From positions 1 to 62,152 of the IMG/VR virus record IMGVR_UViG_3300033153_008214: 62,152 bases of DNA. One strand, given 5' to 3'. The position numbers and the translations under genes are program-made. This document shows, piece by piece, positions 6,599 to 62,152 of this stretch; the stretch's first letter is position 1; every line of letters starts with the position of its first letter. Below the pieces are notes generated by a model that saw only the letters and a list, made by a program, of their open reading frames with translations, had not been told where the DNA came from and made no database searches. The DNA comes from a virus (taxonomy: Duplodnaviria > Caudoviricetes).

Positions 6599-7092
6599 TG
6601 TCAAGAAAAAATTTAACAGCCAATGAGCATGCCAAGGTAGCAAGTGCTTTCGCTAATAAGCATGCGGCACCTTTGCAGATGGATGGATATCAGGCGGAGT
6701 CAGTTACGCTTATAATAGACCTGGCTATGGGGAATGAGGCGGAGATATTTGATATTTTGGATACACTAGCTCTGAAAGGATGGGTTGAAGGCTCAATTAT
6801 CATGGACAAGCTTGATGGATATGGTTTACCTATTAATCCAGGTGTAGATAGATACGTCTCTGTTTTAAGTAATGCCCGTAATATTAGAGATGCTGATGGA
6901 GTACACGGCATGTTATCAGCCAAGGTTTTCTCAGCATTCCATTGGAATGATTATCCATTATGGGCATCAATCGATGGATACCCTGCTCATCATTACTGCG
7001 GTGTTCCAGTAGCGGGGACAACTATTAGACCAATGCGGAGACGTAGTAAGCCTATTGAGGTCATCATCGAGCCGCCCGACCCACCTGAATAA
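6598..7092 (+). CDS. Hypothetical protein, translationally coupled to the upstream spike gene
   Basis: TAATG stop/start overlap. 3 DGY in 164 aa. Pro-rich tail. Confidence 0.55.
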   Translation: MSRKNLTANEHAKVASAFANKHAAPLQMDGYQAESVTLIIDLAMGNEAEIFDILDTLALKGWVEGSIIMDKLDGYGLPINPGVDRYVSVLSNARNIRDADGVHGMLSAKVFSAFHWNDYPLWASIDGYPAHHYCGVPVAGTTIRPMRRRSKPIEVIIEPPDPPE

Positions 7093-20600: not shown

Positions 20601-21195
20601 TGGTTCTATGTTTTCTATTGGGGGAACTCTTACTGAAGCAGGCTCTGGAACACACGGATTACTTGCTGGATTGGAAGTAAATGCTCCTACCGTTACTGGA
20701 GCAGCAGCTACCGTAACAAATACAGCATCTCTCTATGTAGCTGGTGCAATGTCGGCTACGGTAGCTGGTGTTAATTACGGATTATGGGTAGATGGAGGAG
20801 AGACAAGACTTGATGGAAGCGTACTTCACTTAGGGGATAATGACTATCAGATAGAGACTACTGCAGTATCTACTACGAATGCAACCGTAACGACTATTAT
20901 GACACTTGGTACATCTTCAAATACCACTTATATGTTAAAGACTGAAATTGTTGGTAAGCGTACTGGTGGTGCATCAGGTGCCGCTAACGATGGAGCAGTT
21001 TACGTTAGATCGGCAAGGATTAAAAATAATGCTGGCACGGTAACTATTAATGACCTGCAAACCGACTTCACAAGTGAGGATCAGGATTGGGATGGAACCA
21101 TTACTTTTTCTGGAACGAATGTATTAGTAAGGGTGACTGGAGCTGCGAGTAATAATATTGATTGGGTAGCAACCACTACTGTGCAGGCTGTTTAG
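17692..21195 (+). CDS. Tail fibre protein sharing modules with the C-terminal third of ORF 8759-16072
   Basis: Long near-identical protein blocks (VTLTGNITFTTS.RGAGR..., IGGTLTEAASGTHALLAGLEINIP...). Repeated FNETGA..DFR.EG and RIGIGT fibre motifs. 2 DGY. Confidence 0.75.
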   Translation: MTSYVNDDLIVTGNVAVQGKTELSSNYIYMNNGYTTAVAQTGGLSFNYSPTGLTDTVNGVYVAGVASTSNPTVVTTGSATFAAGDFVQFNGASKNNGLFEVLTHTTTTLTIRGIGTTAAIEDFTDTQFIAGSSDSATIAKVNVAIIRTGIDGVFETARGSSTTGSGLVFKDVFPNQLDTLAYSATVDLDMDPLGLSYKTVTLTGNITFTTSSRGAGRITVIRIVGDTSDRTLTFPAGWKFLGGPTPASIPANQVGILSITGFGTADADIVAGFSFDTSETSLGGSGTVNELAYFTDPDSLTSSSALTWDGIDLGVDGYISITEEDSPPTPTSGTGYIFAKTDGILYWKDDSGTETSVVGFGDVVKVGTPANNQLGIWTGDGTIEGDSNFTWTGTVLDMKTTSNAGTYFTNTAASGSTGGSGIISGSNDGAAMANNDRLGYLVFRGARDASSTFTNSAAVAAYASETWTGSSSPSRLIFQTTPSGSNSRVEGMRLDKNGNIGVGQSTITSKLEVGGTFAPAVSAIGSVVSIGGTLTEAASGTHALLAGLEINIPVITGGSATVTNTASLYVAGVASATVTGDNYAMWIDAGTSRFDGSLLLAEAAAPGTPASGFGSLYAKTDGYLYWKNDAAEEYNVSTSAGGGGGGSLTGSGATNQITYWNGTTSLTGSSSFTFDGTTFAVDTAAIFNETGAAIDFRIEGDNEQNLFFVDGSTDRIGIGTNTPAERLHIEGTVDGGVKLRIHNLNDGGTSHQSRLDVVAGPTMSVGGSGDPYFSFIVLGDGHASVPSIVNSVATNCNEYRMSTSYKSGGKITFYTDPGTAGATIERIAITASTETVFNDPGSDYDFRVEGDTRANLLFIDAGQDRVGINRTTGNLGATLDIDNLAVAESVFIARDNGTAKFTIANGGALTQEGGAVFNETGADVDFRVEGLTDPNLLTVNAGVNAIGIGQSTPTSKLEIGGTFAPAASAIGSMFSIGGTLTEAGSGTHGLLAGLEVNAPTVTGAAATVTNTASLYVAGAMSATVAGVNYGLWVDGGETRLDGSVLHLGDNDYQIETTAVSTTNATVTTIMTLGTSSNTTYMLKTEIVGKRTGGASGAANDGAVYVRSARIKNNAGTVTINDLQTDFTSEDQDWDGTITFSGTNVLVRVTGAASNNIDWVATTTVQAV

Positions 21196-21203
21196 GAAGT
21201 AAT

Positions 21204-23816: not shown

Positions 23817-26648
23817 ATGGCAGCAATAACAGGTAGACTTACAATTAATGGTTCTCACTACTTAGAAGTAGCAGCAAATCCTTCTGATGGTACAGTTGCG
23901 GCTGTAGGCTCACTGGCTACTGTAAGCGATGGCAGTGGATTGTATTTGAAAACAGGGGCAGGCGATACTGCCTGGACTGTTATGGCTTCAGGGAGTCTCT
24001 CAGGTAGTGGTGCCACGAATAAGGTAGCTTATTGGTCTGGTGCTAGTACGCTTACTTCTGATACTGATTTACACTGGGATAATACTAATAATCGGCTTGG
24101 AGTGGGAACATCACCTTCTTACGCAGTGCATGTTACTTCCCCGCCTACTTCTAATATTGGTATAGCTTATGAGCCAAGCTCTATTGCCGCCAATGATAGA
24201 CTATATTATGGTGCAGTAGCTGGCGGAGCTAATCAGGTTTATCCATTTTATTTTGATACTTCGTCAACCGGCGGCGCTCAAGGTCATATATTTAATAGTA
24301 CTGGTGCAGCTATACTTGGTTTGCAGACTTCAGAAGCAGCTTCCTATGTGTATACTTTGTATGACCAGAATTCTAACTACTGGACTACAGGGGTAGATGG
24401 GGGAGATAGTAATAAGTTTAAGATATCAGCGAGTAGTTATCCTGGTGCAAATGATTATTTCGTAGTAGGGTCTGACGGTTATTTCTTTTTAGGTACAACA
24501 GCTTCTATTTCTGACACAATTAGTCAAGTTACAATTGCAAACACTGATAATGATATTCCGACGCTAAACTTAACAAGCAACACTGCTGTTACAGGCAACT
24601 CAAGTTTATGGCTAACTACTGGTACAACAAACCCTGGGTCAAAGTTTGGATTCTTTTTAAAGAATGATGGTACAGATGATGAACTATCAATTGGTAGAAA
24701 TAATGATGGTGCTACTGATATTGAAGTTTTCAAAATAAAGAGAAGTAATAGCAAGATTGTAATGGGCACATCTCAAGATGCAGGAACAGGAGATATAGAG
24801 ACAGACTCAACTTATAATTTTAGAATTGGGTATAGTGATACATATGCTGCAAATACGACTTTAGGAGTCATGCAAAGTACTTCTTCTGTAAATGATCCAC
24901 ACTCTTTATTAGCTTTACAGTTAGATCGAGATGGGACTACTTTTGGAAATCCAGGTTGGGGCCCAAGATTGGATTTCAGAGTGTCAAATGATACTGTTGG
25001 GAGACCAGGATACAGAATTGCAAGTATTGATGCAGTTATTCCATATTCCCACTCAGGACAACAATGGGGAAGGTTAAATTTTTACACTGCTGATGAAGCT
25101 GAGCCGACATTAAAAATGTCAATAAATCCAGACGGTTATGTTGGCATAGGTGTAGAGGATGCGACTAGAAAACTTTTAGAGATTAGCACTCCAAATACGC
25201 AAGGGGCTGGAATCGCCTTAGTGAATAGTTCCACCTCAATAGTAGCAAATGATATAGTTGGGTCAGTAGATTTTTACAGTGATGACCTAGCTTTAAGTGG
25301 AGATGGTCAGAATCGAGCATCAATATGGGCTGAGTCTACGGATGCTGCTGCAACGACATTGCTAAAGTTGGAGGTAAATTCATCTGTCTCTATAGATACC
25401 AAGAGAGGGGTCTCTATAAATGAAAATGGGTATTTCGGAATTGGAACGATAGAAGATCCCCAGGAACATCTACATATTCAAGGTAGAACTGGACTAGCTT
25501 CAAATATTCTCTTAGAAGCAACCACCATTAGTCAGTTCGCACAAGTAGGAGATATTAAGTTTACTGCTTCATCAGGGACAAATAGCCCGGCCAATATAAC
25601 AGGCTTTTATAGAGATGTCTCAGGTAATATCGATTTAAGATTTTCATCTGGTACTGGCGGGACTGCGGACAGCACTTTGGTAGTAGGGCCTAATAAGGTT
25701 TTTGCAGGAGATGTAACGTATTCCACAGCATCTACTGGTACAGAGATGAATGTTGTAAAGGTTGATGCGCCACCTATCTTAACTATTATGCGAGATGATA
25801 GTTCTATATCTGCTGGAAATGACTTAGGAGGTATAAAAGTCGGTACGGATACAGATATAGGTGGGTTAATTGCCTTTGGAGCACAAAATGATTGGAGTAC
25901 GGGCAACTTACAATCGACATTCATGTATATAAACCTTCAAGACAATACATCTACAGACACTCTTCTAGAATACTCTTTAACTTTATCTAAGGATAAAATC
26001 GCTACAGGGACTGTAACTACGACAGGTGACACTTATTTGCATTTACATGCAGATGGGTACGTTGGCCTTATACTTGATGCTGATACAGTTAATAACAGTC
26101 CTACTGGTGAGCCAAGTCCCTTTATAGAAATGCTATCTGACGGAGGAGCTGTTAGCTATTATCTTGGTGGCGTTAGTGGTGGTGGAGATACTGCCGTTGG
26201 TGGCGTTACAAGTGCGACTCAAAATGCATTATTAGTTGGAACCACAAGCGCCTATAAAACACAGCTTTTTACGGACTCTGTAGTTAGAATGGACATTGAT
26301 GCTAATGGTAGAGTAACGTGGCCTAATGCTGGGGGCCAAGTACCAGTTGCCTGGGCCATGTTAAGCATAAGCAGTGGTTCTGTAACAGTAAGTGAGGATA
26401 TTTATATTGGAAGTGTCTCAACCAGTGGTGTTGATATGACAGTTAACTTCTCAGTAACTAGAGCAAATTCGAATTATGTTGTATTAAGTGGTACAGACAA
26501 TAATACAAACTCTATTGCTCAAACAATGACTTCTACTGAAGGCACTGGAAGTTTTTTACTACATTGGTATAATTTTTCAGGAACTATACAGAACTGGTCA
26601 AGTTACTCTGGCAGAATTTATATAACTGTGTTTGACATGGAGCCATAG
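23817..26648 (+). CDS. Tail fibre protein
   Basis: GSGATNKVAYW...LHWDNTNNRLGVGT shaft motif and repeated G.VGIG..P...L motifs. C-terminal VAWA...VNFS..RANSNYVV receptor-binding-like tip. 3 DGY. Confidence 0.7.
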   Translation: MAAITGRLTINGSHYLEVAANPSDGTVAAVGSLATVSDGSGLYLKTGAGDTAWTVMASGSLSGSGATNKVAYWSGASTLTSDTDLHWDNTNNRLGVGTSPSYAVHVTSPPTSNIGIAYEPSSIAANDRLYYGAVAGGANQVYPFYFDTSSTGGAQGHIFNSTGAAILGLQTSEAASYVYTLYDQNSNYWTTGVDGGDSNKFKISASSYPGANDYFVVGSDGYFFLGTTASISDTISQVTIANTDNDIPTLNLTSNTAVTGNSSLWLTTGTTNPGSKFGFFLKNDGTDDELSIGRNNDGATDIEVFKIKRSNSKIVMGTSQDAGTGDIETDSTYNFRIGYSDTYAANTTLGVMQSTSSVNDPHSLLALQLDRDGTTFGNPGWGPRLDFRVSNDTVGRPGYRIASIDAVIPYSHSGQQWGRLNFYTADEAEPTLKMSINPDGYVGIGVEDATRKLLEISTPNTQGAGIALVNSSTSIVANDIVGSVDFYSDDLALSGDGQNRASIWAESTDAAATTLLKLEVNSSVSIDTKRGVSINENGYFGIGTIEDPQEHLHIQGRTGLASNILLEATTISQFAQVGDIKFTASSGTNSPANITGFYRDVSGNIDLRFSSGTGGTADSTLVVGPNKVFAGDVTYSTASTGTEMNVVKVDAPPILTIMRDDSSISAGNDLGGIKVGTDTDIGGLIAFGAQNDWSTGNLQSTFMYINLQDNTSTDTLLEYSLTLSKDKIATGTVTTTGDTYLHLHADGYVGLILDADTVNNSPTGEPSPFIEMLSDGGAVSYYLGGVSGGGDTAVGGVTSATQNALLVGTTSAYKTQLFTDSVVRMDIDANGRVTWPNAGGQVPVAWAMLSISSGSVTVSEDIYIGSVSTSGVDMTVNFSVTRANSNYVVLSGTDNNTNSIAQTMTSTEGTGSFLLHWYNFSGTIQNWSSYSGRIYITVFDMEP

Positions 26649-26656
26649 GAGATATT

Positions 26657-27304
26657 ATGAATAGAATCCTTTTTTTCTTAAGCGGGTCTGATTATAGTTC
26701 CTACCATACATCTGACCAAAATTATGAAAAGTTTTTCTCAGCTTACTTCTCTAAAAACGGTGTAGTTCCGGACGGATATTGCTTTGCTGATGTGGCAAAT
26801 TTGCCATCCATTTGGGACATTAATCGGGACTTTACTTTCTTGACAGATGGTTACGAAGGATATTACAGATTTGGAGAGTTTACAGGTCATAATTTCTACG
26901 CATCTGTGAACCTATTAAGCTCTGAGAAAAATATAGTTCGATTGGACGTAGAGAGAACAGTTGGGGAAAAAATTGGTACTGGTTTTGCATTTGCAGGACA
27001 ACAATTCAGCCTCAGTCAAAACGCACAATTAAAGTGGAGTGGTTTATTTGCATCAAAGGATTTTCTAACTTATCCTATAAACGTATCTAATATCGATGAT
27101 ACTGATGGATATGATATTCTAGATGCAAGTGCTGTGACTGCTATGTATCTGGCTGGAGTTACGGTGGTTCGTCAAGCTTTAGATAATGGAAATTCTGTAA
27201 AAGTTCAGATTAGGAACTGTGACAGCTTGCAAAATCTGGATGATATAATTGACGCAAATTTTAATAGTAGTGATGCCATTAGGTTAAAGTACCGGATTTC
27301 TTAA
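26657..27304 (+). CDS. Putative tail fibre assembly protein (DUF4376-like C-terminal domain)
   Basis: Follows a fibre gene. GFAFAGQQFSLSQNAQLKW...KVQIRNCDSLQNLDDI resembles DUF4376-type chaperones. 3 DGY. Confidence 0.5.
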   Translation: MNRILFFLSGSDYSSYHTSDQNYEKFFSAYFSKNGVVPDGYCFADVANLPSIWDINRDFTFLTDGYEGYYRFGEFTGHNFYASVNLLSSEKNIVRLDVERTVGEKIGTGFAFAGQQFSLSQNAQLKWSGLFASKDFLTYPINVSNIDDTDGYDILDASAVTAMYLAGVTVVRQALDNGNSVKVQIRNCDSLQNLDDIIDANFNSSDAIRLKYRIS

Positions 27305-30352: not shown

Positions 30353-30396
30353 TAAACTGCAACCTAATAGACGATAGTAACTTGCAGAGGACAGTT

Positions 30397-31287
30397 GTGG
30401 CTATTCCATATGATCGTAGTGCTGTTCCAGTAGGCTCTTCTGTACGCCTTGAAGTCCAGTTTAAAGACTCCGCAGGGAACTCTAAGGATGCTCAAGCTAC
30501 ACCCACGTTTGAGGTACAGGATGCCTCTAACGCAGTTGTACTTGCCGCATCAGCTACTGGAGTAACCCGTACTGCTAAAGGGCGGTATCGTTACGAATAT
30601 ACTATACCCACCGGTTATGTCTCAGGTATATGGAATGATATCTGGGTAGGTACCGTAGATGGATATCAACTCACTGAAGTATTTAATTTCACAGTAAATA
30701 GTGTAGGAAGTATAGAATCTACCGGCTCTAGTATTCCAGAAGATGATTATACTCTAGATGATGATGATCTGGAGTATGATTACACTCAGGAAGAAATCCA
30801 AGGTATTTTGCTACTTAGGGGAATGTTGAAAAAACGTTTGAGAAGTACCATCTATAATACCGAAGGATCCTCTTGCCCCATCTTCTCTAATGATTTGCTA
30901 TTAAGCTTCCTATGTGCCTCTCTATCTGAACTAAATGCAACTCCCGCATTTACAACTTACTCCTTTGCTGATAATGTCATTCAAACTCTAGCTGTAGACC
31001 TTATGACACAGGGTGCCTTGCTAGTTGCCTGGTCAAGCCAAGCTATCATAGAAGCCGGATTCGAACTAACTGTGAATGACAATGGAGTTACTGTTAACCC
31101 TCCACCCGTCAGCACTACGATGACAGGATTATATACTACGCAACTCACGGAGTATAGGGCTAAGTTGAAGGAATTTAAGAGGAATCATCGCGCCTCAGCT
31201 CGTGGCCTAAGTGCAGGTAACCTACTTAACGGTAGGAATTTCAGAGTTCGAAGATTACGACACCGAAAAGAATTAAGATTGATCTGA
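30397..31287 (+). CDS. Putative neck/head-completion (adaptor) protein with N-terminal Ig-like domain
   Basis: GTG start after gagga. Ig-like N-domain (GRYRYEYTIP...WNDIW), then a helical domain (SLSELNATP...VNDNGVTVNPP) and a basic C-terminus. Position upstream of the tail module fits. 1 DGY. Confidence 0.5.
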   Translation: MAIPYDRSAVPVGSSVRLEVQFKDSAGNSKDAQATPTFEVQDASNAVVLAASATGVTRTAKGRYRYEYTIPTGYVSGIWNDIWVGTVDGYQLTEVFNFTVNSVGSIESTGSSIPEDDYTLDDDDLEYDYTQEEIQGILLLRGMLKKRLRSTIYNTEGSSCPIFSNDLLLSFLCASLSELNATPAFTTYSFADNVIQTLAVDLMTQGALLVAWSSQAIIEAGFELTVNDNGVTVNPPPVSTTMTGLYTTQLTEYRAKLKEFKRNHRASARGLSAGNLLNGRNFRVRRLRHRKELRLI

Positions 31288-31441
31288 ATTTCTAGGGACT
31301 TGTAAGCATTGTGCAAATTGCTAAATAGTAGCGAATTAGGTTAAGATAGGATAGACTCAAAGCCGGACTTTCTTTAAAAGATACGATCTTTAATTAGGGC
31401 TCGCGACGATTAAGATGTATTTATGTCTTAAGGAGGGTCTT

Positions 31442-36161: not shown

Positions 36162-38219
36162 ATGTCTACACTTTATCCAAATAATATAGATTCGAATCTA
36201 AGCCTTCCCAAGGTAATTGATAATGTTAGCCCTATTATAGCTAGGGATGTTAATCAGTTGCAGGAAGCAATTATTGCTATTGAGACTGAGCTTGGAATTA
36301 ACCCTAAGGGCACTTATAGTACGGTAGATGATAGGCTTGATAATATACTGGATGTTATCGGAGGCCCTGGCTTTATCAATGCTGCAAGTGTAAGTCTAGC
36401 AGACGCTGATGGATATTATGACTCCGCCAATGTAGAAGGTGCTTTACAAGAGATTGGCGCTGAGTTGGCAGATGGAGTTGGGCTTATAGGTGAGGCAGAG
36501 GATGGCACTTATACGGATGGACTCTTTATAGACTTCGTAGCCACTACTGAGATTGGTGTAGCTGTGGATAGATTTAATGAAATCCTTGGTGAATTGGCCC
36601 CTCCCCCAGCTCCAGCCTTAAGTGACATGAGTTTTACTAGTACGCTTGGAACTGCTTCTAAAGTATCCTTTGGGACATCTAATGCGATTGCGGGTTACTC
36701 TGATGTAGGTACTGCAGGTGGTGGTTCAGCCCTTGATATCAATGGTAGCTTTACAAGTGGTAGCGGTGCAGCATTACGCAAGGGAACTTATGCAGCATCC
36801 TCTACGCATACTGGTATAGTAGCTGATGCAGTAATTGCTGACAATGGAGTGCCTACAGCATCTTATCCAGCGAATTCTTTCGGAGATGGGTATAATGGTG
36901 CGTTAGAGCTAGAGGTAAATGGTGCTGTAGTGCACACCCTTGATCTTACAAGCTTTGTATCTGGGACAAGTGTGAATGGTAATGGTTCTGGGTTTACAAG
37001 TGTTAGTGAAGGGACTCCTGTGAAATTCCCTAATGGTACTGATTTAAATCTATTCCATTATCGTACTGCAAACTGGACTGTAGATCCTTCAGACCAAAGA
37101 AATGGTTGGAATTACATGAGAGTCATTCATGATGATGCCCCAACATTTACCAGGGTAACGAATTATTATGAATGGGTTGTTGATGCTAATGCAACTGCGA
37201 CTACGTTTGCATCTGAAAGCCTTGCTGCCCCCTCTATGACAGGTTCGAAGCATATCTCTGGTGTAGAGTATCATACTGGTGGTACTGCAAACTATGGGGT
37301 AACTGTAAGTAATCTACATCGAAACACTTATAGTAGTAGTGGTTCGGCAGTAAGCCATCCCGGTGTTTCAAATGTTAGTATATCTTCCGCTTCACTTGGA
37401 ACTATTTCTGCAGAATCTGATACTGAAGTGATTGCAAGTAAAACTGCAACGATAAATGCAAGCCGAGTTTTGGATGGTTCGTTAACTGTGGACACTCGAA
37501 TTGATCGAACTGTTCAGAGTGACTTAACTTCTACAGGAGTTAGTCAGACAGGTATACTTGTTGATAATGTAACTGATAGCTCTGCAGATACCAATGAACC
37601 TTTGAATGGTGAGAAGTATCGTACTCCCAGCAATAGGTCTTTAACTGATACGACAGGTTTGAATACTGGTGGCAATGGTGCTCTTTGGGATGAAACAATT
37701 TCTTTAGTTGCAGCTACCGCTGGATATACGGATGGGTTGCAGTTATATAACGATACTTTGATTTACCCAGTAACTAATTTTAGCACAGTATCTCAGGGTC
37801 CTGCAGGCAATGTAGATTATAGCAGTGCTGCTGGCACGAGAACATATTGGAGATACTTTTATGTTGGCGGAAGTGCTCAAAACTTTAACATCAATGTTTC
37901 TCAAAGTGGTGTAAGTTTCATAACAGTTGCGACTAGCCTTGGTACTGGAAATGGTAATGCGCATATGGAACTACTCGCAAGCAATACTACGGTAAATGGT
38001 GGTGCAACTGTAGAATTTAAAGATTGCGTGGTATCCTATACTTCAGATACGGCAATAGGTTGCTTCGCCTCCACTTACGGTGCGACGATACCAGGAAATT
38101 GGGGGACGACGCTCGGCACAAAGTCCTCGGCAACTTCAGGCTCATCAATTATACTAAGAGTTACCGTAGGTCAGGGATGGACAGGATCAATTTCAAACAT
38201 ATCTCTTTCTGTAGTTTAG
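36162..38219 (+). CDS. Virion fibre/collar protein with YP..ID...LP anchor
   Basis: Shared N-terminal anchor, NVEGALQEI fibre motif, Ser/Thr/Gly-rich body. 2 DGY. Confidence 0.6.
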   Translation: MSTLYPNNIDSNLSLPKVIDNVSPIIARDVNQLQEAIIAIETELGINPKGTYSTVDDRLDNILDVIGGPGFINAASVSLADADGYYDSANVEGALQEIGAELADGVGLIGEAEDGTYTDGLFIDFVATTEIGVAVDRFNEILGELAPPPAPALSDMSFTSTLGTASKVSFGTSNAIAGYSDVGTAGGGSALDINGSFTSGSGAALRKGTYAASSTHTGIVADAVIADNGVPTASYPANSFGDGYNGALELEVNGAVVHTLDLTSFVSGTSVNGNGSGFTSVSEGTPVKFPNGTDLNLFHYRTANWTVDPSDQRNGWNYMRVIHDDAPTFTRVTNYYEWVVDANATATTFASESLAAPSMTGSKHISGVEYHTGGTANYGVTVSNLHRNTYSSSGSAVSHPGVSNVSISSASLGTISAESDTEVIASKTATINASRVLDGSLTVDTRIDRTVQSDLTSTGVSQTGILVDNVTDSSADTNEPLNGEKYRTPSNRSLTDTTGLNTGGNGALWDETISLVAATAGYTDGLQLYNDTLIYPVTNFSTVSQGPAGNVDYSSAAGTRTYWRYFYVGGSAQNFNINVSQSGVSFITVATSLGTGNGNAHMELLASNTTVNGGATVEFKDCVVSYTSDTAIGCFASTYGATIPGNWGTTLGTKSSATSGSSIILRVTVGQGWTGSISNISLSVV

Positions 38220-52584: not shown

Positions 52585-55149
52585 ATGGGCGCAGTAATTC
52601 CAAACGTTTTTGACCCGGTACAACCAGATATCTTTACCAGGGTCAGAACTCGCGAAAGAGTAAATGCTATTTCCGGCGGTTCACGTGTTCTTGCCATAGT
52701 TGGTGAGGGTGAGACTGAGGAAACCTTAGTTATTTCTGCCACTGGTGGCGGAGCTGATGGGTGGAATTCAGATTATTCTGGGACTGCTAATCCAGATGGA
52801 CGACATTTCCAAATCTCTAAGATAGGCCTGGTCAACAGTCGGAGTACTATCTTTAAGAATGGTGTTCCTCTTGCAACTCTTGAAGAGCAGATTACTTCTA
52901 AGGCATTCGATAATCGCTATGATGCCCGAGTAGATCCGCTTACTGGTAGGGTTGAGCTACAACGAGCCCATGTAGTAGACTTTGGTACCGATGTAAATGG
53001 TATTACCCTGTATTACTCCGTTAATTCAAGCAATGTTGGTACTGGCGTACCTGTTATTACTCAATCTTCCCTAGTTGATACGAACGCTCCTGCGGAAACT
53101 TGGACTGCCCGAGTTGTTGGAGTTATTAAGAACTCTGGTGGAGATATTATATCTGGAGAAGCTAGTATCTCAGTAACTGGTACTGAGTCTGGTCAGCTTC
53201 TGGATGTTAATGGTAACCCTTATGTTTGGAAATCTGGTGGGGTTGCAGTAAGCAATGGTGTTTTGAATCTTGCATTTACTGAGAGTGGAACTCCATTCAA
53301 TGTAGGTGACCGATTTACTATGCAGGTAGATAGTGGAGTTCTTTCAGTTAATGATAGCCTCTCTGCTCGCTACATTGCTAGCGAAGACCTTAATAACCCT
53401 GAGACTTTCTCTTCACCTCAAGATGCTTTCGCTATCTACGGTGACCCAAGTGTCACTAATACGCTTTCCCTTGGAATGCAGATGGCATTTGAAAATGGAG
53501 CCCCGGTGGTTACTGCTGTTATGGCCAAACCTCCAGTTCCCAGGAAAACTACTGAGTATCCTATTCTTGCAGATAATCCTCTTACCGATGCGGTAGAAGG
53601 TGCAACTGGTGGATCAGATCTTAAAGACACTGTATTCCCGCTTGCCGTAGGTGCGTTGCCTGATATTGACAGTAATGTCAATGTCTTTGTAGTCAGCTCA
53701 GATGGTACCGAGGAACAACTTCTTCTTAATAAAGATGATTTCTATGACACTGCCTTTACTACTACGGCTCTTGCTTATGCAAACTTTGTACAGGGTCCGC
53801 TTAGTGAGTCATATACTGTATTTACCTCTCCTCAAGTTGAGCAAGATGGTGATGATGGGTATGTTGAAATCCTTAGTGGTACTGAGATTTACTTCTCTGA
53901 CCCACTTGTACAGTTCTCAGCTGACCGCTTAGAGACTGGTGAGGGAGATGTTGGAAAGCAGATTGAAATCCTCTCTCCCGCCGAGGTTATTGGCACCTAT
54001 ACGATTACTAGTGTAGGCGATGGGTATGGCAATCTTAATGTAGCAACTGCTACAGGCACCCCTCCGGGCGCTACAGGAACCATTATAGATGGTTATGTTG
54101 CTTGGCAGATTGTAGATCCTAATGATACGGGTCATGCTTACTTTGCAATTACTGATGATGTTGCGGCAAATAGTCTGACTGCAGGTAAAGGGCTTCGAGT
54201 ATCTTATGTAGATACAGATGATGCAGACCATTTTGATACTAACTGGGGAGAGGCAATTCAAGCTCTTGAACTGGTAGATGTTCAGATGGTTGTTCCGCTG
54301 CCTATGCAGACAATTAGTAGCATCCAACAGGTATTTAAACGACATGTGGAAGTTGAGAGTAATATTCTCAACCAGCATGAGCGGATTCTTATTACGGGTG
54401 CTATTCCAGGGCTTGTCCCAGACAACCTTACTGGTCTAACTAGTGCGGCTGTGGAAGATATTGGTATCTTGGAAGGTATTCAGGGTGATGATCCTGAAGA
54501 AGTGCTTGCTGGTAATATCGAAGATATTACCAATTACTCAATCCCTGATGGGTTTGGAGATAGCTTCCGGGTTGTCTACATGTATCCTGATGAGATTGTA
54601 AGGAATATTGCAGGTCAAAACACTATACTTCCTGGTTATTTCTTAGCTGCTGCTCTTGGTGGGTATCTTGGCGGACAATTGAACATTGCTCTTCCTGCTA
54701 CCTTTAAGACTCTTGCTGGATTCAACATCCTTAATGACAAGCGTCTTAGGAAACGAACTAAGAATCAACTTGCTGGAGCAGGTGTGCTAGTTGTTGAGCC
54801 GATTGCTGGTGGTGGTAAAATGCTCTGGGGTAAAACGACTGTTCAGTCTGGAGCACCAGAGGAAGAAGAGATTAGCATTGTAGCTATTAGGGATCAGGTT
54901 GCTCGTACTATTCGTGCAAGCTTAAGACCCTTCATTGGTAGGATTAATAGTCCGACCATTGTTGCAGAGCTAAATGCCGGAATTGGAAAACTTCTCAGGT
55001 CACTAGTTGGGCAGGGGCTTCTAGCTGGATTCGGTTCTATTACCGTGCAGAGGAATCCGATTGAGCCTCGACAAGTTGACATTGGTGTAACCATTCATCC
55101 TGTAGGCGTGTTGGATTGGGCGTTTGTGGATGTGATCGCCGAGCTCTAG
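52585..55149 (+). CDS. Contractile tail sheath protein
   Basis: N-terminal QPDIF. C-terminal sheath domain (HER...RVVY..P...LAAAL...L..AGVLVV...WGKTT...EISIV.IRD...FIG...VTIHPV..LDW..V). RBS ggagg. 3 DGY. Confidence 0.85.
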   Translation: MGAVIPNVFDPVQPDIFTRVRTRERVNAISGGSRVLAIVGEGETEETLVISATGGGADGWNSDYSGTANPDGRHFQISKIGLVNSRSTIFKNGVPLATLEEQITSKAFDNRYDARVDPLTGRVELQRAHVVDFGTDVNGITLYYSVNSSNVGTGVPVITQSSLVDTNAPAETWTARVVGVIKNSGGDIISGEASISVTGTESGQLLDVNGNPYVWKSGGVAVSNGVLNLAFTESGTPFNVGDRFTMQVDSGVLSVNDSLSARYIASEDLNNPETFSSPQDAFAIYGDPSVTNTLSLGMQMAFENGAPVVTAVMAKPPVPRKTTEYPILADNPLTDAVEGATGGSDLKDTVFPLAVGALPDIDSNVNVFVVSSDGTEEQLLLNKDDFYDTAFTTTALAYANFVQGPLSESYTVFTSPQVEQDGDDGYVEILSGTEIYFSDPLVQFSADRLETGEGDVGKQIEILSPAEVIGTYTITSVGDGYGNLNVATATGTPPGATGTIIDGYVAWQIVDPNDTGHAYFAITDDVAANSLTAGKGLRVSYVDTDDADHFDTNWGEAIQALELVDVQMVVPLPMQTISSIQQVFKRHVEVESNILNQHERILITGAIPGLVPDNLTGLTSAAVEDIGILEGIQGDDPEEVLAGNIEDITNYSIPDGFGDSFRVVYMYPDEIVRNIAGQNTILPGYFLAAALGGYLGGQLNIALPATFKTLAGFNILNDKRLRKRTKNQLAGAGVLVVEPIAGGGKMLWGKTTVQSGAPEEEEISIVAIRDQVARTIRASLRPFIGRINSPTIVAELNAGIGKLLRSLVGQGLLAGFGSITVQRNPIEPRQVDIGVTIHPVGVLDWAFVDVIAEL

Positions 55150-55177
55150 ATCAATGTTTTCAAGGGGTTAGAAGATT

Positions 55178-55945
55178 ATGAGTATTAAAATTGGAATTTA
55201 TAGAATATTGTGCACTGTAACAGGTAACTGTTATGTTGGAAGCTCTGCGAATATAAATAAAAGATTTGGCTCACATATGACAAACCTTAGGTGCAATCGG
55301 CATAATGCCAGATATATGCAGCGTTCCTGGAATAAGTATGGTGAAGAGAGCTTCAGGTTTGAAATACTTGAAGAGGGAATTCAAAAGGATTGCCTAATCT
55401 CTAAAGAGAAAGAGTATTGTAGAAAATTTGCTATAGAAGGTAAGTTTCTTCCAGCTTTTAATACTATCGAGCCTGGAGATGTGAGTTATGGAAAACGCCA
55501 CACTCTGGAATTTAGAAAGAAGCTTTCAAAGCTTTACACTGGGCGTAAACTCACAGAGCAACATAAGGCTAACGTAAGTGCAGGCCTACTGCGAGCAGGA
55601 AGAACGATTTCTAAAGAAAATATCGCAAAGATGCAGAACGGGCGTTTGGAGAAACCTCTATCTGCAGAGTCAAGAAAGAAGATGAGCGATGCTCATAAAG
55701 GGGTCAAGCTTTCACAATCTCATAAGGATTCAATTAAAAGATCTCAGATTAATAACCCTTCTCGCAAGTGGAGACCTGTAATAGGTAAAAGTGTTAAGAC
55801 TGGAGAGATTAAAAAGTATGCAAGTATAAAAGCTGTTAAGGAAGATGGGTTTCATGCCGGTCACGTAGGCGGTGTATGTAGAGGGGTTAATAGGACTCAC
55901 AAGGGTTTCTATTGGAAGTATGCGGAAGACGTTCAAGGCAAGTAA
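55178..55945 (+). mobile_element. Free-standing GIY-YIG homing endonuclease with NUMOD3/NUMOD1 repeats, between sheath and tube
   Basis: GIYRI...CYVGSS.NI.KR. NUMOD3 repeats (KRHTLEFRKKLS, LSAESRKKMSDAHKG). C-terminal HKGFYWKY. Confidence 0.9.
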
Positions 55946-55980
55946 ACTTTTGGCAAATAGATAGAATTGGGAGTTAATAA

Positions 55981-56661
55981 ATGGTTGGATATCTTTATAC
56001 AGACACAAGTCAAGGTGCAGCTACTGCGACTGGTCTATCTACCCAAATACTTATTCAGGTGGATGGTCAGGGCGTTGGCGCTATTCAAAAGTTTGGTTCT
56101 AATCAGAATCGTGCTACTAAGCGTATTACAGAAGTGGGTACTGATGGTACAATTGAAATTGTACCAAATTCAGCTACTGAGGTTACACTTGAGGTTACAA
56201 GAATCGTCTTTGATAAAAAGAGGATGACTGAATCATTCCAGCGAGGATTCCTAAATATTCATGCTCAGCGTATACCATTTGATATACTCGTGTATGACTT
56301 CAGTGATGTTCCAAGTGATACTGCTCTGAATGCTGATCCAGCAAATTTAGATGTAGCGAGTGCATTTGATGCTCCTATTGATGCAGAAGGTGTAATTACT
56401 ACTGTGTATGAGAATTGTTGGTTTAAAAAACTTAGTACAAGCTATAATTCTGGAGACTATATAATTAGTGAGGATGCAACTATTGATGTTGAATTTGTTC
56501 ACAGCTTCAAGGATGGCAAGTCTAACATCTCTGCCAGCCGTGGCGAGCCTGCGTTTGCTGATGCTCTTGAGCGTCTTGCTGACTTGGGTCGAAGAGGCAG
56601 CTTGGATGCACGTGGTCTTGGAAGGATTGGAGATACGTTCTCTGGGTTACTTTCCCCGTAA
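55981..56661 (+). CDS. Tail tube protein
   Basis: Follows the sheath. I.VDG..VGAIQ...R...RI.EVG.DG..EIVP...PFDI...YENCW...Y...DYII.E pattern of myovirus tube proteins. Confidence 0.8.
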   Translation: MVGYLYTDTSQGAATATGLSTQILIQVDGQGVGAIQKFGSNQNRATKRITEVGTDGTIEIVPNSATEVTLEVTRIVFDKKRMTESFQRGFLNIHAQRIPFDILVYDFSDVPSDTALNADPANLDVASAFDAPIDAEGVITTVYENCWFKKLSTSYNSGDYIISEDATIDVEFVHSFKDGKSNISASRGEPAFADALERLADLGRRGSLDARGLGRIGDTFSGLLSP

Positions 56662-56740
56662 CATTCAGTAAGAAGCCATACTGAATTCTAACTTGATATT
56701 AGTTTTATCAGCTTAGAAGTTGTATGAGTTAATGAATTCT

Positions 56741-56771
56741 AAAAGCCTTGCCGTTCCTGGCAGGGCTTTTT
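56741..56771 (+). terminator. Rho-independent terminator after the tail tube gene
   Basis: aaaagccttgcc-gttcct-ggcagggcttttt stem-loop with T tract. Confidence 0.75.
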
Positions 56772-56793
56772 ACTTATAAGTGAGGTAAGAAGT

Positions 56794-57624
56794 ATGGCAA
56801 GTATAGAGCACCCGATGACCAGTCATGTTAATCAAAAAGAGCAGAATGTTGTTCCTCAGCAAATGAATGAAGCTATCATTATGTCTCCAGAAGATGAAGA
56901 GTTTGTCCGAAGGCATATGGAAGAGTTAGAAGCTGAGGTAGCTGGAGAAGCTCTGTCTCAAATGGAGACTGTAGATCCTGTAATTGAGGCAGAAGTTAAA
57001 AAGAAGAATATCTTGGAAAAGTTAGTGCTATTTAGCAAACCACATCTTAAGGATGTCAAGTGTGGGGATAATATATTTCAATTGAAGATCCTGACCTCGA
57101 ATGAGAATGATGCAGTCTTTAGCGAGATTAGGAAATTTACTGCATCTGAGCAGTTTGTAAAGACTTCTATAATGCTTTTGTCTGCAAGTCTATTGGAGGC
57201 TGATGGAGTTCCGATAGAGAGCATTTATAGTGGCCCGGAAGAAATAACTAACCCTATGCTGCAAAGGTATTATGAGTTATGCAAGTGGCCATCCCCTCTT
57301 ATTAATCAGTTGCATAAGCCTGTTAACGACGAGTCATTCAATTCTTTTACTGCTTTGGATTGGAGCTATTATGCTGCCCAGATTAGAATGGACCAAGAAG
57401 AAGAATTAGAGCAGAAAAGAGATCTGGCTGAGTATCAGGCAATGTTTTCTAATCCGGAAGGGGTTAAGAAGGTTAAGAGTTTAAGGGCTCAGGAAGATGA
57501 TAATGAATTTGAAGAACTGCGTGGGTTTGCAGAGAATGGCAAGGTAGTATCTACTGAAAATGATGAGGAATTTGCTAGGTTTATTGGTAAGGGTGGAAGC
57601 GTTCCTAAGTTTAGGAAGGGGTGA
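56794..57624 (+). CDS. Tail assembly chaperone
   Basis: Position between tube and tape measure. Acidic/helical, with an F.LK.L..E motif. Confidence 0.6.
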   Translation: MASIEHPMTSHVNQKEQNVVPQQMNEAIIMSPEDEEFVRRHMEELEAEVAGEALSQMETVDPVIEAEVKKKNILEKLVLFSKPHLKDVKCGDNIFQLKILTSNENDAVFSEIRKFTASEQFVKTSIMLLSASLLEADGVPIESIYSGPEEITNPMLQRYYELCKWPSPLINQLHKPVNDESFNSFTALDWSYYAAQIRMDQEEELEQKRDLAEYQAMFSNPEGVKKVKSLRAQEDDNEFEELRGFAENGKVVSTENDEEFARFIGKGGSVPKFRKG

Positions 57625-59852
57625 TTATGGTTGCTGAGCTAGATATATCGTTATCCGATGAAGCACTATTGAAAGCTGGTGGCACGATATCTAAAGGTGT
57701 CGCTGCCACTATTGAGAAAGAACTCAATAATTCTGACTTTAGCGCTGTTCAGGACAAGATCTATGGTAAAGGTCGAATGGATTCTGCTCGTGAAGAGATT
57801 AAGGATACAGGGGACCGGGCTCAGGATGTTTTAAAGAAGATAAAGGACTTGTCAACAAAAGTTAAAGCAGCTTTCTCAGAAAAGTTTTCAACAAACTCTC
57901 TTGAAGGATACATGAAGAGTTTGAAGGAAATGACAGAAGATGTTAATATAGAACAACTTATGATGCATGTTGGTTTAGATGAAAAAGAAATTGCTGGTAT
58001 AGAGTCTAAGGCTAAAGCTGCGGGAATTAAAGTTGGAGATTACCTGGATGCTACATTTGACATTGATACTAAGGAGGCTTTGAAAAATCTGAAAGATTTG
58101 AAGGGTGCTGCAACTGCAGCGATGAGCATTCTAGAACCTTTTATGACAGGAGCTATTGGAAAAGAGCTTGGGCTGAATATAGCTCTCACTCAAACTCAAA
58201 AGCAATTTGAAAGGGCTACTAAGTTTGCTGCAGATTTTGAGACTACAGTTACAGATGTTAGTAAAACTGCATTAGATCTGGCTTTACCATTTATGAGCCT
58301 TGAAGATAAGTCTGGGCAGGCTTTTGCTGGAGTCAGTAAAGCTCTAGGGGATTACCGAGACCAAACTGCTAGCATTGTAAAATCTACAGGATTGAGTACT
58401 CAAGAAATTGATAAGATGACTCTTGCTTTTAAAGAGGCTGGGATTGGTGTAGATAGGCTTAATTCTACGGGGCCAACATTCAGAAGTATGGCTACTGATA
58501 TAACAGGTGCCGAGTCTGCTACCCTGGGGGCTTCTGTAGCTCTAAGGTTATTCGCAGGAGCTGGTATAGACTCAGCGGTGGGTGCTGAGCTAATAGGGTT
58601 CAGTGCTCGTAATCTTGGACTCAGTATGGAAGATTCTGAGAGAAGGATTGGATTATTCTCTGAAGTGGTTGGTGCTACTGGTGAGCCAATGAGCATTGTT
58701 TCAGGAGTAATTGACAAAAGTGCTAGAGAACTCAAATACTTTGGAGATACCACTCAGGGAGTTGCAGAAATATATACTAGGTTTGTAGGAGTGCTTGGGG
58801 AGGGCAGGACTGGCCTCGCAGTAGACTTTGTCAACAGTATCGTCAAGGGCATAGGTGGTATGGATGAAGGTCTTAAAGCGTTTATAGGGATGGCTAGTGG
58901 CCTAGGAGGCGGTGGAGCTATAGGTGGCATGCTTGGTATGGAAGAGAAGCTTGCAAGTGGTGATATAGAGGGTGTTCTGAATACAGTTGTAGAACAGATT
59001 GAGTCGATTACTGGTGGTCCTATGATGGGTCGTAAAGAAGCAATCGATTCGGGTAATGAAGAACAATTCTTTATGCAACGTAAACTTTTCCAAGATTTTA
59101 TGAAAGTTGATAGTTCTGAGCAGGCCACCAGGATGATGGAAGCCATAGCTGGTGGGCAAGGAGTTGCTGGTGCAGACTTGGATGCTGCTAGAGGAATGGC
59201 AGGTGTAGTATCAAGAGGTAAAGACGTACAGGATTCTACAATCGGTACTCTTGAAAGAACTCGAAATATGATGGCTGCTACGAGAAATCTTACTCTTACA
59301 AGAGAATCATCCTTAGCTCTGAAGGACAGCTCTTCTAACTTCTTAGACGCAAGCCAAAATTTATTCCAACTGGTAGATGGTCTGGACAATTACCTTACAC
59401 GTGATACTGCTGCAGAGTATAAACCGGAGATGGTTTCAGATGTAGGTAAGTCAGTTGTAAAGTTTGAAACAGATTTCACTCAACTTAGTGACCGAATGGT
59501 TCAAAGGTCTGGGACTGAGGGAGACTATATGGGTGCTATAGCTGATGCTAACAAGTCCCAAGGTTTTTCATCTATAGCTGCTGATGCTTTAACTTCTGAA
59601 AAAAGCATGGATGCGGTAGTGGCTGCAAAAGAGAAGGAGACTCCAGACATTGAGAAAATGTTCAATGGGATTGTCACTCATGTTAGAGAAACAAATCAGG
59701 TACCTTCATTTGAATCTCCTATGATGCCTGAAGAAATTACATTAGTTGTAAACCTTGATACTAGCAAGGAGACACAGCGAGTAAAAGCGATGGTTCAAGA
59801 GAATCAGAATCGTGGTGCTGGATGGCATAATAGGACTAGGTCAGGTCGTTAG
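57621..59852 (+). CDS. Tape measure protein
   Basis: 743-aa Ala/Gly/Met-rich helical protein directly after the chaperone. The start may be ATG 57627. Confidence 0.7.
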   Translation: MIMVAELDISLSDEALLKAGGTISKGVAATIEKELNNSDFSAVQDKIYGKGRMDSAREEIKDTGDRAQDVLKKIKDLSTKVKAAFSEKFSTNSLEGYMKSLKEMTEDVNIEQLMMHVGLDEKEIAGIESKAKAAGIKVGDYLDATFDIDTKEALKNLKDLKGAATAAMSILEPFMTGAIGKELGLNIALTQTQKQFERATKFAADFETTVTDVSKTALDLALPFMSLEDKSGQAFAGVSKALGDYRDQTASIVKSTGLSTQEIDKMTLAFKEAGIGVDRLNSTGPTFRSMATDITGAESATLGASVALRLFAGAGIDSAVGAELIGFSARNLGLSMEDSERRIGLFSEVVGATGEPMSIVSGVIDKSARELKYFGDTTQGVAEIYTRFVGVLGEGRTGLAVDFVNSIVKGIGGMDEGLKAFIGMASGLGGGGAIGGMLGMEEKLASGDIEGVLNTVVEQIESITGGPMMGRKEAIDSGNEEQFFMQRKLFQDFMKVDSSEQATRMMEAIAGGQGVAGADLDAARGMAGVVSRGKDVQDSTIGTLERTRNMMAATRNLTLTRESSLALKDSSSNFLDASQNLFQLVDGLDNYLTRDTAAEYKPEMVSDVGKSVVKFETDFTQLSDRMVQRSGTEGDYMGAIADANKSQGFSSIAADALTSEKSMDAVVAAKEKETPDIEKMFNGIVTHVRETNQVPSFESPMMPEEITLVVNLDTSKETQRVKAMVQENQNRGAGWHNRTRSGR

Positions 59853-59875
59853 AACAGATAGCTTGGAGAAAATAT

Positions 59876-60808
59876 ATGGCTTTTATCGATCCGTCACCAG
59901 GATATAATAATGGAGGAGTTGCACTCCCTCCATCAGTTGTATATTCATCTGTAATTAATTCTACGAGTAACGTATCTCACATTATAGAGCGTCCATTATC
60001 AGCCGAATATACTAGGCAAATGATGAAGTGGAGAGTTCCAGGATATGGTTGGGTAACTATGTTTTTAAACCCTGACAATTTAAAAATTGTTGAAGGTAAA
60101 GATATTAAACCTACTCGTACTAAGGCTGGTTTCATTTTACAATATGCTGGGGAAAAGTTAACAAATATTACTCTTAGTGGGACTACTGGTTCTGCTGGAA
60201 TAGAAGGGATCAATATACTTCGGTCTATTTACAGAGCAGAGCAGTTAGCATTTGATAATATAGCTGATGAGTTAGAGCGTACTGGACCACTATCTGAATT
60301 CCTTCAGCTGGCTCGTGGTTCTACAGGAACTATTACAAACACTCCTGATTTTGGTTCAATTACTGAACGTACTGCAGACATAGCTTTAAATATCCTAAAT
60401 CAGCCATTCCCAACTCTATCAAGTCTAGCAGCGAATATTGAATTATACTTTCAGGGAGAACTATTTAGGGGCTACTTTACTGATTTCTCCGTAGAGGAGT
60501 CTGGTAAAGAACAGGGTCTTATTAATTATACGTTAAATTACACAGCATATGCTAGGCAGGGAGTCCGAAGGAACTTTATGCCTTGGCATCGACAACCTTT
60601 CAATCCTATTGGTGCATCGGCGGGAAAAGCTAATCCTCTTTCATATTATTCTGCTGCTGAAGTTGATAGCCAGGTGTCTACAGGTTCTATTGAGCGACGT
60701 GATGAGACTGTAGAACCTAATGCTGATGCTAGATTTGGTTCACGTAGTGTAAACAGTGCATCAGATAGAGATGGAAGTAGTTTAGCTGGATTAGATTTCA
60801 GGTTATAG
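59876..60808 (+). CDS. Baseplate tail-tube initiator-like protein
   Basis: MFLNPDNL.I...K.I...RTKAGF..QY.GE.L..I.LSGTTG...FRGYF.DFSV.ES......Y..NY. Confidence 0.65.
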   Translation: MAFIDPSPGYNNGGVALPPSVVYSSVINSTSNVSHIIERPLSAEYTRQMMKWRVPGYGWVTMFLNPDNLKIVEGKDIKPTRTKAGFILQYAGEKLTNITLSGTTGSAGIEGINILRSIYRAEQLAFDNIADELERTGPLSEFLQLARGSTGTITNTPDFGSITERTADIALNILNQPFPTLSSLAANIELYFQGELFRGYFTDFSVEESGKEQGLINYTLNYTAYARQGVRRNFMPWHRQPFNPIGASAGKANPLSYYSAAEVDSQVSTGSIERRDETVEPNADARFGSRSVNSASDRDGSSLAGLDFRL

Positions 60809-60820
60809 TAAGGAGTTAGT

Positions 60821-62152
60821 ATGGCAATATTAAGAGGAACGTCTCAATCAAGGTTTCCACCATTTGATGATCCGAATACTGGGGCTGGTATGCTTATTGA
60901 GCAGGGCCAGAAGACTGTATTAAATTTCCTAGATGGTATTAATGATGGTAAGTTTGAGAGCAAGTTTGTTGAAGATGGCGTACAGAATGTCCCAGGGTTT
61001 TCTACTATTGATCGCAGCTTTTCTCAGGTAAAGCAACCCTCCCGCAGGCAGATTATTACACAGAGGAATCAAGCAACAATTTTTCTTAAGAAGCGTATGT
61101 TCTCTACATTGAGATCAAATTATGATATCAAATTTCTTGGAAATGATGAGAAAACATTCCTAAGAGCTTCCAAATTATTATTTGAGCGTAAAGCTCAGGA
61201 ATTAAGCTTCTATGAAAGCCTGATAGCTGTAGATAATCTGTTTGATAGTAGCGGATTCATGAATATCGATAAAGTCGTAGATGGAACCGTAGCTAGTCTA
61301 TTGCAAATATTAACGGTTGCCTTTGACGGTTTCAGCATTACGGCGGGCAGGCAGTTCTCTGTTTCCGAAATTATAAACATGAGCACTTCTCTGTCACCAT
61401 ATGCAAAGGTCTTGAATGATCTTTTAAAGATTCAAGATGCTAATCTTCGTTCCAAGGGAAACAATCTGACGACTTGGATAGTTGATCCTAAGAACCCAGA
61501 TGTGTCTGGCATTGGTTCTGGTGTAGGCGTCCTAGAGCTTAATGTAGTAAGCAGTATTAATACAACTGTCTCAGTTAATCCTGGTAATTGAGGACCCTTA
61601 CAAGATATCAGTAATAACTGATAGTGATATTGAGATTGCTCTTGGTGAGGCTATTGCTCAGCATGATGTGGTAGGTGGTAGCATCAGAACTGTTGGTAAT
61701 TACTTGATGAAGCAAGCTGAAGCTTTAGACATCCAGTTGAATAATCTGAGAGCTGATAGAGGAGTTAGTCAGATTAACTTCGAGTATTCTCTTGGTGATG
61801 GGAAGGTGCTTGGAACAGTAATTATTACTAGTGAGTCTTTTGAGATTTATTCAATTGGAGCTATTTCTTCTGCTCAGGCGTTTAATGATTATGAACTAGC
61901 ATTAGCTAAAGAGATTATGGCACTTATGGCCGCCTTTCATCTTGCAGATCAAAGTAATCTTGATTTGTTCAAAATTATGAATGAAGATTATAACGAGGTA
62001 AGACAAAAGCTTCGAAATGAATTTGTTGGACATTCTATAGTACAGCAAATGGATATGATTCATGTTTTCATGAATAGTAATACTCGCAATGATACTCCTG
62101 GCAGTGAGCAGAATTTTACTGAAGGCACTATGCTCGGCAATCTTAATCTTCA
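60821..62152 (+). CDS. Putative baseplate hub protein, frameshifted at ~61587 and running off the window end
   Basis: The first frame ends at TGA 61589-61591. The +1 frame is open from 61551 to the window end (IEDPYKISVITDSDIEIAL...IVQQMDMIHVFMNS) and has no start or RBS of its own at the junction. Confidence 0.55.

Follow-up and report, generated by a model that had tools for sequence, protein, structure and literature searches.

This locus raises the question of why one short peptide word, Asp-Gly-Tyr (DGY), should recur in the outer proteins of a phage tail and cease at the tail tube. The locus is a 62,152-nt stretch of the viral record IMGVR_UViG_3300033153_008214 (Duplodnaviria; Caudoviricetes), referred to below as the window, and all analysed open reading frames (ORFs) in it (43/43) are on the plus strand. 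The original prediction held that DGY is selected only on exposed surfaces of the virion. The following alternatives can be considered: the tripeptide could arise from chance, composition or a DNA-level signal; it could be a structural turn; it could dock a non-enzymatic partner; or it could be a tag read by an enzyme. We observe a strong, order-specific, protein-level enrichment restricted to one set of virion proteins, and the reading we put first, while stopping short of calling it probable, is that a phage enzyme reads DGY and modifies the tyrosine, most likely by glycosylation.

DGY enrichment and the boundary at the tail tube

DGY accounts for 63 of the 185 DGx tripeptides (Asp-Gly followed by any residue) of the window, where tyrosine makes up 3.7% of the residues; the effect is thus real and far larger than the original prediction had indicated. 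In 2000 within-protein shuffles the mean was 4.92 (standard deviation 2.24) and the maximum 15, while the expectation is 4.9 under independence and 14.1 under a first-order model; among all tripeptides, DGY ranks first as an outlier. The five other orders of the same letters occur 1 to 8 times each, and the near-variants NGY, EGY, DGF, DGW and DAY occur 2, 6, 7, 3 and 0 times, respectively. DGS (n = 13) and DGT (n = 18) are near expectation, and DSY is found once.

A motif at the DNA level was ruled out, as the pattern GAYGGNTAY occurs 63 times in frame versus twice out of frame and twice on the minus strand. Since the pattern is in frame and the codon choice inside DGY matches the usage of the genome, the signal belongs to the protein level. 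With a shuffle maximum of 15 against 63 observed, this frame preference and recurrence of the pattern in 82 loci, the probability of chance, composition or a DNA-level signal is practically negligible.

None of the positions flanking DGY is conserved. By context, the 63 sites form 40 similarity groups; 32 of these are singletons, and the other 8 groups hold 31 of the 63 sites. Hence, a single repeated domain as the carrier was ruled out, and, as 32 of the 40 groups are singletons, repeats and paralogues account for only a part of the count. Several sites of the 2437-amino-acid (aa) repeat protein, which has 53 GY dipeptides, lie inside a repeated N..G..AG..L-DGY-SN unit, and we take these repeats to be reminiscent of the head repeats of trimeric autotransporter adhesins. 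The site of the 301-aa ORF has a context similar to the N-terminal part of the two phrog_5939 tail proteins (all coordinates are given in Table 1). An enrichment of about 13-fold that is ordered, lacks flanks and is found on one structural layer is a hallmark of sequons.

In the tail module, the original prediction had counted three DGY in the sheath, one in the ORF at the terminator position and none in the tube, chaperone, tape measure, tube initiator and hub. A recount gave the same picture, with 3 of 8 DG dipeptides in the sheath, 1 of 1 in the terminator-position ORF, which precedes the region given in the prediction (52,585 to 62,152), and 0 DGY in 12 DG in the six ORFs that occupy the window from the tube slot onwards. 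The names tube, chaperone, tape measure, initiator, hub and terminator follow gene order only, and they remain positional for the tube, neck and hub, because searching solved structures with the sequences of these three proteins yielded nothing below E 0.2. As had also been noted, DGY is missing from the patatin ORF (DGE, DGG, DGW), the HNH ORF (no DG tripeptide listed), the cold-shock protein (DGS, DGL) and the three homing endonucleases, which have DGF, DGL and DGC forms instead (DGL/DGF/DGF/DGA; DGC/DGD/DGT/DGQ/DGF; DGF).

The boundary was assessed in 82 sheath loci (80 of 208 sheath relatives were taken in) with classes set by position only: upstream ORFs, sheaths and co-oriented downstream ORFs. 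DGY makes up 315/975 DGx in the upstream ORFs and 202/658 in the sheaths, versus 9/800 downstream; thus, the stop at the tail tube, first noticed in the window, holds in the related loci. Absence from the inner parts does not hold as a strict rule. Among unique downstream proteins DGY is found 8 times in 740 versus 17.4 expected from the [^D]GY rate (P 0.0096, relatedness ignored), and 6 of these 8 go back to a single inherited site, which a subclade has close to the C-terminus of the ORF that follows the tube slot. The sheath/tube boundary is therefore conserved, not absolute, and the downstream absence is mainly a lack of enrichment with a mild depletion.

The same layout is observed in individual relatives. 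In G009 (sheath 54-55% identical), the closest of the relatives whose sequence continues downstream, there is no DGY in 24 DG from the tube slot to an ORF of the size of a sheath initiator; then follow a baseplate-J-like protein (2/5) and two fibres (15/29 and 6/13; 23/47 in sum), a gene for a glycosyltransferase of the GT4 family, and 31 ORFs of at least 100 aa with 0/64. In G001 the stretch that begins at the tube slot and includes the baseplate J protein has 0/29, and the fibres after it have 3/15 and 2/7. Beyond them are GT4, GT2, a 337-aa ORF, GT2 and an epimerase, and the remaining ORFs, with 94 DG, are DGY-free. Inner-baseplate ORFs have no DGY. The tail, neck and fibre block of the complete relative G003 has 54/282, and its remainder has 18/508 with 2.7% tyrosine; thus, the non-virion genes, where a similar density would have spoken against the original prediction, are at background. 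Some small proteins of G001 (g1r 76364-81798) and G009 (77313-82435), with weak DUF6745 matches, have 7-15 DG each and no DGY, so a high DG density alone does not bring DGY with it.

The proposal that DGY follows exposure itself stood in part. It applies to the sheath, the neck, the giant beta-helix or fibre-like proteins and, in relatives, the outer baseplate and fibres, and it fails at the capsid: when the count is extended to the head genes, the major capsid protein (identified by phrog_2522) has 0 DGY in G003, G001 and G004, with 0 DG in G003, 0 in the G001 exon and 1 in G004. The head block of G003 is almost DGY-free, the exception being a 270-aa ORF directly upstream of the capsid gene (2/3). 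Since the major capsid protein and the head block are nearly devoid of DGY, the tripeptide marks the outer tail apparatus, not exposure as such. Shielding or decoration of the tail via DGY, as originally suggested, is plausible as a putative role.

Turnover of the sites and the tyrosine hydroxyl

By its predicted fold, the DGY-carrying ORF 52585-55149 is a tail sheath. The AlphaFold2 model (mean predicted local distance difference test score, pLDDT, 83.6) is matched by Foldseek with probability 1.00 to the sheaths of phi812, T4 and phiCD508. VIA-align superimposes it on 8q1i_I with Z 33.8 and a root-mean-square deviation of 2.6 over 320 aligned residues, and on pyocin R2 (3j9q_A) with Z 29.6 and 321/385 residues aligned. 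The sequence matches are tail sheath phrog_23 (E 1.5e-8) and Pfam Phage_sheath_1C (19.6 bits, below the curated cut-off of 26.9). As approximately 320 of the 854 residues match minimal sheaths, most of this protein consists of extra domains. All its DGY sites fall in the least conserved, partly gapped stretch at about 391-540, an insertion that the L006 sheath lacks. The model places DGY 424 within a long run of strand, DGY 479 in an interstrand loop and DGY 502 at the beginning of a strand (local pLDDT 79-85).

If the sites were fixed parts of the fold, they would be expected to stay in place. In 69 unique sheaths we observe 14 DGY columns, and lineages differ in the columns they use: the window sheath uses 424, 479 and 502, and most relatives use columns corresponding to window positions 183, 190 and 207. 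In the orthologues of G002 (48-77% identical), 12 of 16 DGY are kept, versus 12 of 33 other DGx; the lost ones became NTV, DGD, SAN and SYT, and two were gained. Thus, these alignments show purifying selection on the sites, combined with turnover.

In G004 (316 kb, 94% complete) DGY is scarce (28/591 overall, 1/10 in the sheath, near background in the neck and giant proteins), and its fibres adjoining GT4 have 7/28 and 3/16. Since its orthologous sheath and neck proteins are at background, the folds do not require DGY. From the fibres, the tripeptide may have extended to the other parts of the outer tail. The L006 sheath has 0/10, and the tail module of Bacillus phage G, the nearest cultured relative, shows no clear enrichment (4/41).

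At the eight recurrent sheath sites, DG is followed by tyrosine in 165 cases and by another residue in 66, among which Phe, Trp and His are never found (V 18, A 10, T 8, E 8, S 6, K 5, I 4, N 3, G 2, Q 1, D 1). In control sheath columns with 25-75% tyrosine, Phe makes up 443 of the 787 non-tyrosine residues. Phe being found in 0/66 cases at the DGY sites versus 443/787 in the controls, what matters at these sites would be the hydroxyl of tyrosine and not its ring, and this hydroxyl seems, from the substitution pattern, to be important.

These observations bear on the structural alternative, in which DGY forms an Asx or type I' turn followed by a hydrogen-bonded tyrosine. The beta-rich outer domains of this lineage would have favoured such a turn, and duplication of domains together with recombination between fibre genes would have multiplied it. 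This alternative is in line with sites 479 and 502 in the sheath model, with the 31 of 63 sites that belong to repeats or paralogues, and with the exclusion of Phe, as a structural hydroxyl would have the same effect. It would leave unexplained the unrelated contexts of 32 of the 63 sites, the near-absence of NGY, the other classic turn, the G004 orthologues and the L006 sheath that fold without DGY, the replacement of sites between lineages by the unrelated NTV, SAN and SYT, the beta-rich inner ORFs (tube slot, hub) lacking DGY in G009 (0/24) and G001 (0/29), and the low count in phage G. A known motif of this kind is the tyrosine corner of Greek-key beta proteins, with Gly at Y-2, Pro at Y-3 and a fixed place in the fold. 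The two have in common a tyrosine near a strand end with the hydroxyl conserved besides the ring. DGY differs in being free of flanks and in shifting its position between orthologues, as the 14 columns of the 69 sheaths and the counts in G004 (1/10) and L006 (0/10) demonstrate. We consider a purely structural origin unlikely.

The glycan locus beside the fibre genes

In the enzymatic reading, DGY would be a minimal tag of only three residues, which selection has retained on the outward-facing parts of the tail in a large clade of phages of about 300-460 kb. Its carriers are the insertion domains of the sheath, the neck-position protein, the giant beta-helix and fibre-like proteins and, beyond the window, the outer baseplate and the distal fibres. 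A phage enzyme would read the tag and modify the tyrosine hydroxyl. The best candidate chemistry would be O-glycosylation by the glycan locus, led by GT4 and located, in relatives, directly after the last DGY-rich fibre gene, with genes for nucleotide-sugar synthesis beside it.

In G001, G003, G004 and G009 no more than about 0.5 kb separates the GT4 gene from the last fibre gene rich in DGY. The glycan locus of G003 comprises approximately 17 genes beside the fibres (293.7-313.2 kb, L130-L131): GT4, a 1129-aa multi-transferase, further GT2, a GT47-like gene, two methyltransferases, FdtA, DegT, a nucleotidyltransferase (NTP-transferase), a 4,6-dehydratase-like gene and epimerases. The set of FdtA, DegT, nucleotidyltransferase and 4,6-dehydratase-like genes suggests synthesis of a 3-amino-3,6-dideoxyhexose; the FdtA-type sugar pathway gene is known from the synthesis of S-layer glycans. 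A Pfam domain of a membrane O-oligosaccharyltransferase was found in none of the 17 ORFs of this locus, 5 of which have no match at all. The glycan locus is the sole conserved enzyme block beside the DGY carriers, and gene neighbourhood makes GT4 a circumstantial candidate for the writer of the putative modification. A gene for a TubZ-type tubulin adjoins the glycan block in G001 (g1r 70896-72251), G003 (292336-293802) and G004 (236215-238635).

Another candidate, the 337-aa ORF in the glycosyltransferase block of G001 (L012:15262-16272), was dropped, as nothing marks it as an enzyme. Its family (P0001-P0120) is specific for the clade and comprises at least 153 proteins, about 325 aa long and unannotated. 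The ORF is present in 6 of the 43 records and absent from the DGY-poor G004, so that, unlike GT4, it does separate G004 from the DGY-rich genomes; in G003 a long distance lies between it and the glycan locus. No Pfam family matches it, and its model (pLDDT 88.2), with a long N-terminal helix and an all-beta domain, has no PDB match at E <= 0.001; it resembles a beta protein anchored in the membrane rather than an enzyme.

The modification could also be of a different kind (phosphorylation, nucleotidylation, sulfation, oxidation to dihydroxyphenylalanine, or cross-linking), with a writer, from the phage or the host, whose gene would lie elsewhere in the genome of about 400 kb. The hydroxyl requirement fits any O-linked chemistry, and only 62 kb are visible of an estimated 400 kb or more. 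Nevertheless, no kinase, sulfotransferase, Fic or tyrosinase domains were found in Pfam scans of the window, 104 ORFs of G001 and 28 ORFs of G003, which cover the genomes partially, and the only conserved enzyme block beside the carriers is the glycan locus; hence, we give little credence to these chemistries.

Alternatively, DGY could dock a non-enzymatic partner, such as a decoration or cement protein, an assembly chaperone, or a host-surface polymer or metal ion in weak contact. The restriction to the outer tail and the order-specificity would fit this equally well, and a small immunoglobulin/prealbumin-like ORF (51210-51722, CarboxypepD_reg) between the giant protein and the neck ORF could be considered in this context. 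Still, three residues with no conserved flanks would make a very small interface, no partner has been identified, and docking would offer no explanation for the conserved glycan locus next to the fibre genes. A docking role is improbable on these grounds.

Several observations weigh against enzymatic modification or limit the case for it. The hydroxyl requirement equally fits a structural, hydrogen-bonded tyrosine. As a discriminator between DGY-rich and DGY-poor genomes GT4 fails: 24 of 43 records have it, as do 4/4 of those at least 90% complete, hence every sufficiently complete genome, including the DGY-poor G004. No glycosyltransferase was found in the window itself by PHROG and Pfam scans, and the link to one is synteny with relatives whose sheaths are 37-58% identical. 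Phage glycan loci can instead serve modification of DNA or of the host surface, and we know of no GT4 with tyrosine specificity. The modification itself is hypothetical, the clade has no cultured member, and the DGY tyrosines are presumed to be exposed. As for the counts, the 82 loci share phylogeny, so the pooled numbers overstate independence, and ORF calling was naive. The contrast within the window between outer ORFs and those from tube to hub (62/151 versus 0/12, Fisher p 0.004) uses an outer class picked after the counts were known, the position-only classes being its unbiased version.

With these points taken into account, modification of the tyrosine by a phage enzyme remains our preferred reading, at the strength given at the outset. 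Its fuller version is more tentative: DGY may be the sequon of a phage-encoded, cytoplasmic tyrosine O-glycosylation, in which the GT4-led locus, with its own deoxy-amino sugars, would coat the sheath, neck, outer baseplate and fibres throughout the clade and leave the capsid shell and the inner tail uncoated.

Gene content of the window and known systems

Related contigs of 37 kb and 124 kb have completeness ratings of 9% and 29%, respectively, and relatives of 435-459 kb are rated 100%; thus, the window is a part of a phage genome of about 400 kb or more. It ends inside the hub-position gene, and synteny would place the fibres and the GT4 gene about 15-30 kb past its end. In a search for this downstream region, the G002 baseplate protein as the query retrieved only the same contig and relatives 41-45% identical, and the virion-type 706-aa protein retrieved no relative.

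Table 1. ORFs of the window and the share of DGY among their DG dipeptides
ORF	Coordinates	Strand	DGY/DG	Remarks
Tail/virion-like protein, 707 aa	1287..3410	+	4/7	Weak PHROG tail and virion matches
180-aa ORF	3438..3980	+	1/2	
Tail protein, 870 aa	3986..6598	+	4/13	phrog_5939, Laminin_G_3; paralogue of 21162-23786
164-aa ORF	6598..7092	+	3/4	
Repeat protein, 2437 aa	8759..16072	+	10/24	Tail spike/virion structural PHROGs
460-aa ORF	16108..17490	+	2/3	
1167-aa ORF	17692..21195	+	2/17	
Tail protein, 874 aa	21162..23786	+	3/8	phrog_5939
943-aa ORF	23817..26648	+	3/11	
215-aa ORF	26657..27304	+	3/3	
301-aa ORF	30382..31287	+	1/1	Among small non-structural genes
Virion-type protein, 706 aa	34038..36158	+	9/10	Homologues in G001, G003, G004
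685-aa ORF	36162..38219	+	2/7	
Right-handed beta-helix protein, 1542 aa	40004..44632	+	5/15	4/5 DGY kept in the G002 orthologue
Giant protein, 2185 aa	44640..51197	+	7/18	4/7 DGY kept in G002, 2 others gained there
Neck/terminator-position ORF, 257 aa	51733..52506	+	1/1	Residue 124; role from gene order
Tail sheath (by predicted fold), 854 aa	52585..55149	+	3/8	Residues 424, 479, 502
GIY-YIG homing endonuclease	55178..55945	+	0/1	Between sheath and tube slot
Tube-position ORF, 226 aa	55981..56661	+	0/3	DGQ, DGT, DGK; weak phrog_985 match; role from position
Chaperone-slot ORF, 276 aa	56794..57624	+	0/1	DGV
Tape-measure-position ORF, 743 aa	57621..59852	+	0/1	DGL; role from position
310-aa ORF	59876..60808	+	0/1	DGS
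Hub-position gene, start only	60821..62150	+	0/6	DGI, DGK, DGV, DGT, DGF, DGK; 1556-1658 aa in relatives

Two of the ORFs in the inner tail region differ from those of sibling contigs. The hub gene is seen as two ORFs (60821-61591 and 61668-62150), and these are one gene, as a 20-nt deletion near 61586 (window 61580-61590), relative to the 99.6% identical contig L003, splits the reading frame; the deletion could be an assembly artefact or a genuine variant. The chaperone-slot ORF has its length because about 111 nt of L001 and L003 are absent from the window at about 57309-57312, which fuses two ORFs of 195 and 108 aa of these contigs (a chaperone-like pair). The neck-position ORF is conserved in G002, G001 and G003.

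Ten DGY-rich fibre- or tail-like genes form a 26-kb block (1287-27304) between the patatin and cold-shock genes, and no comparable block is found between these genes in G001. Endonuclease genes are dispersed in the structural module (727-1020, 7134-8756, 31415-32647 and 55178-55945; two GIY-YIG, one LAGLIDADG and one HNH), and such genes also interrupt the capsid gene in G001 and the tube region in G003.

Among known glycosylation signals, one close in form is the sequon of general O-glycosylation in Bacteroidetes, D-(S/T)-(A/I/L/V/M/T), which is host-encoded and acts in the periplasm. Both consist of three residues with Asp in the first position, have a hydroxyl acceptor, and occur in many unrelated surface proteins. 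The acceptor differs, being Ser or Thr in the second position there versus Tyr in the third here, and DSx and DTx are not enriched in the window.

If tyrosine glycosylation is true, it would represent a new acceptor chemistry for phage virions, with no precedent as a tyrosine sequon or as glycosylation of a contractile tail, and it would explain the large sugar loci beside the fibre genes of huge phages. DGY density would then provide a simple sequence rule predicting the outer tail parts among hypothetical proteins of uncultured huge phages. No description of a DGY tag on phage tails was found in the literature searched, including the available portions of PMC12619734 and PMC12484599.

Tyrosine O-glycosylation is described for the S-layers of Paenibacillus alvei and Thermoanaerobacter/Thermoanaerobacterium, with a linkage that is chemically more stable, and a membrane O-oligosaccharyltransferase probably transfers the glycan there in a co-secretional process (PMC2943079, in the part available). 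In both systems a self-assembling, repetitive surface protein would have a sugar O-linked to tyrosine, established there and a candidate here. Phage tails, unlike S-layers, assemble in the cytoplasm, and the available part of PMC2943079 gives no DGY sequon for S-layers.

The virions of mycobacteriophages are glycosylated by phage-encoded glycosyltransferases, and it is the C-termini of capsid and tail-tube subunits that have the glycans (PMC12619734, citing Freeman et al. 2023, as far as the available text goes). Here, in contrast, the candidate sites are internal, in the sheath, neck and fibres, the capsid and tube-slot proteins lack the motif, and the system is known from sequence alone. What the two would have in common, on the same partial source, is that phage glycosyltransferases are encoded near the structural genes, here in the relatives G001, G003, G004 and G009, and that glycans, proposed or demonstrated, are on exposed virion proteins as a shield.

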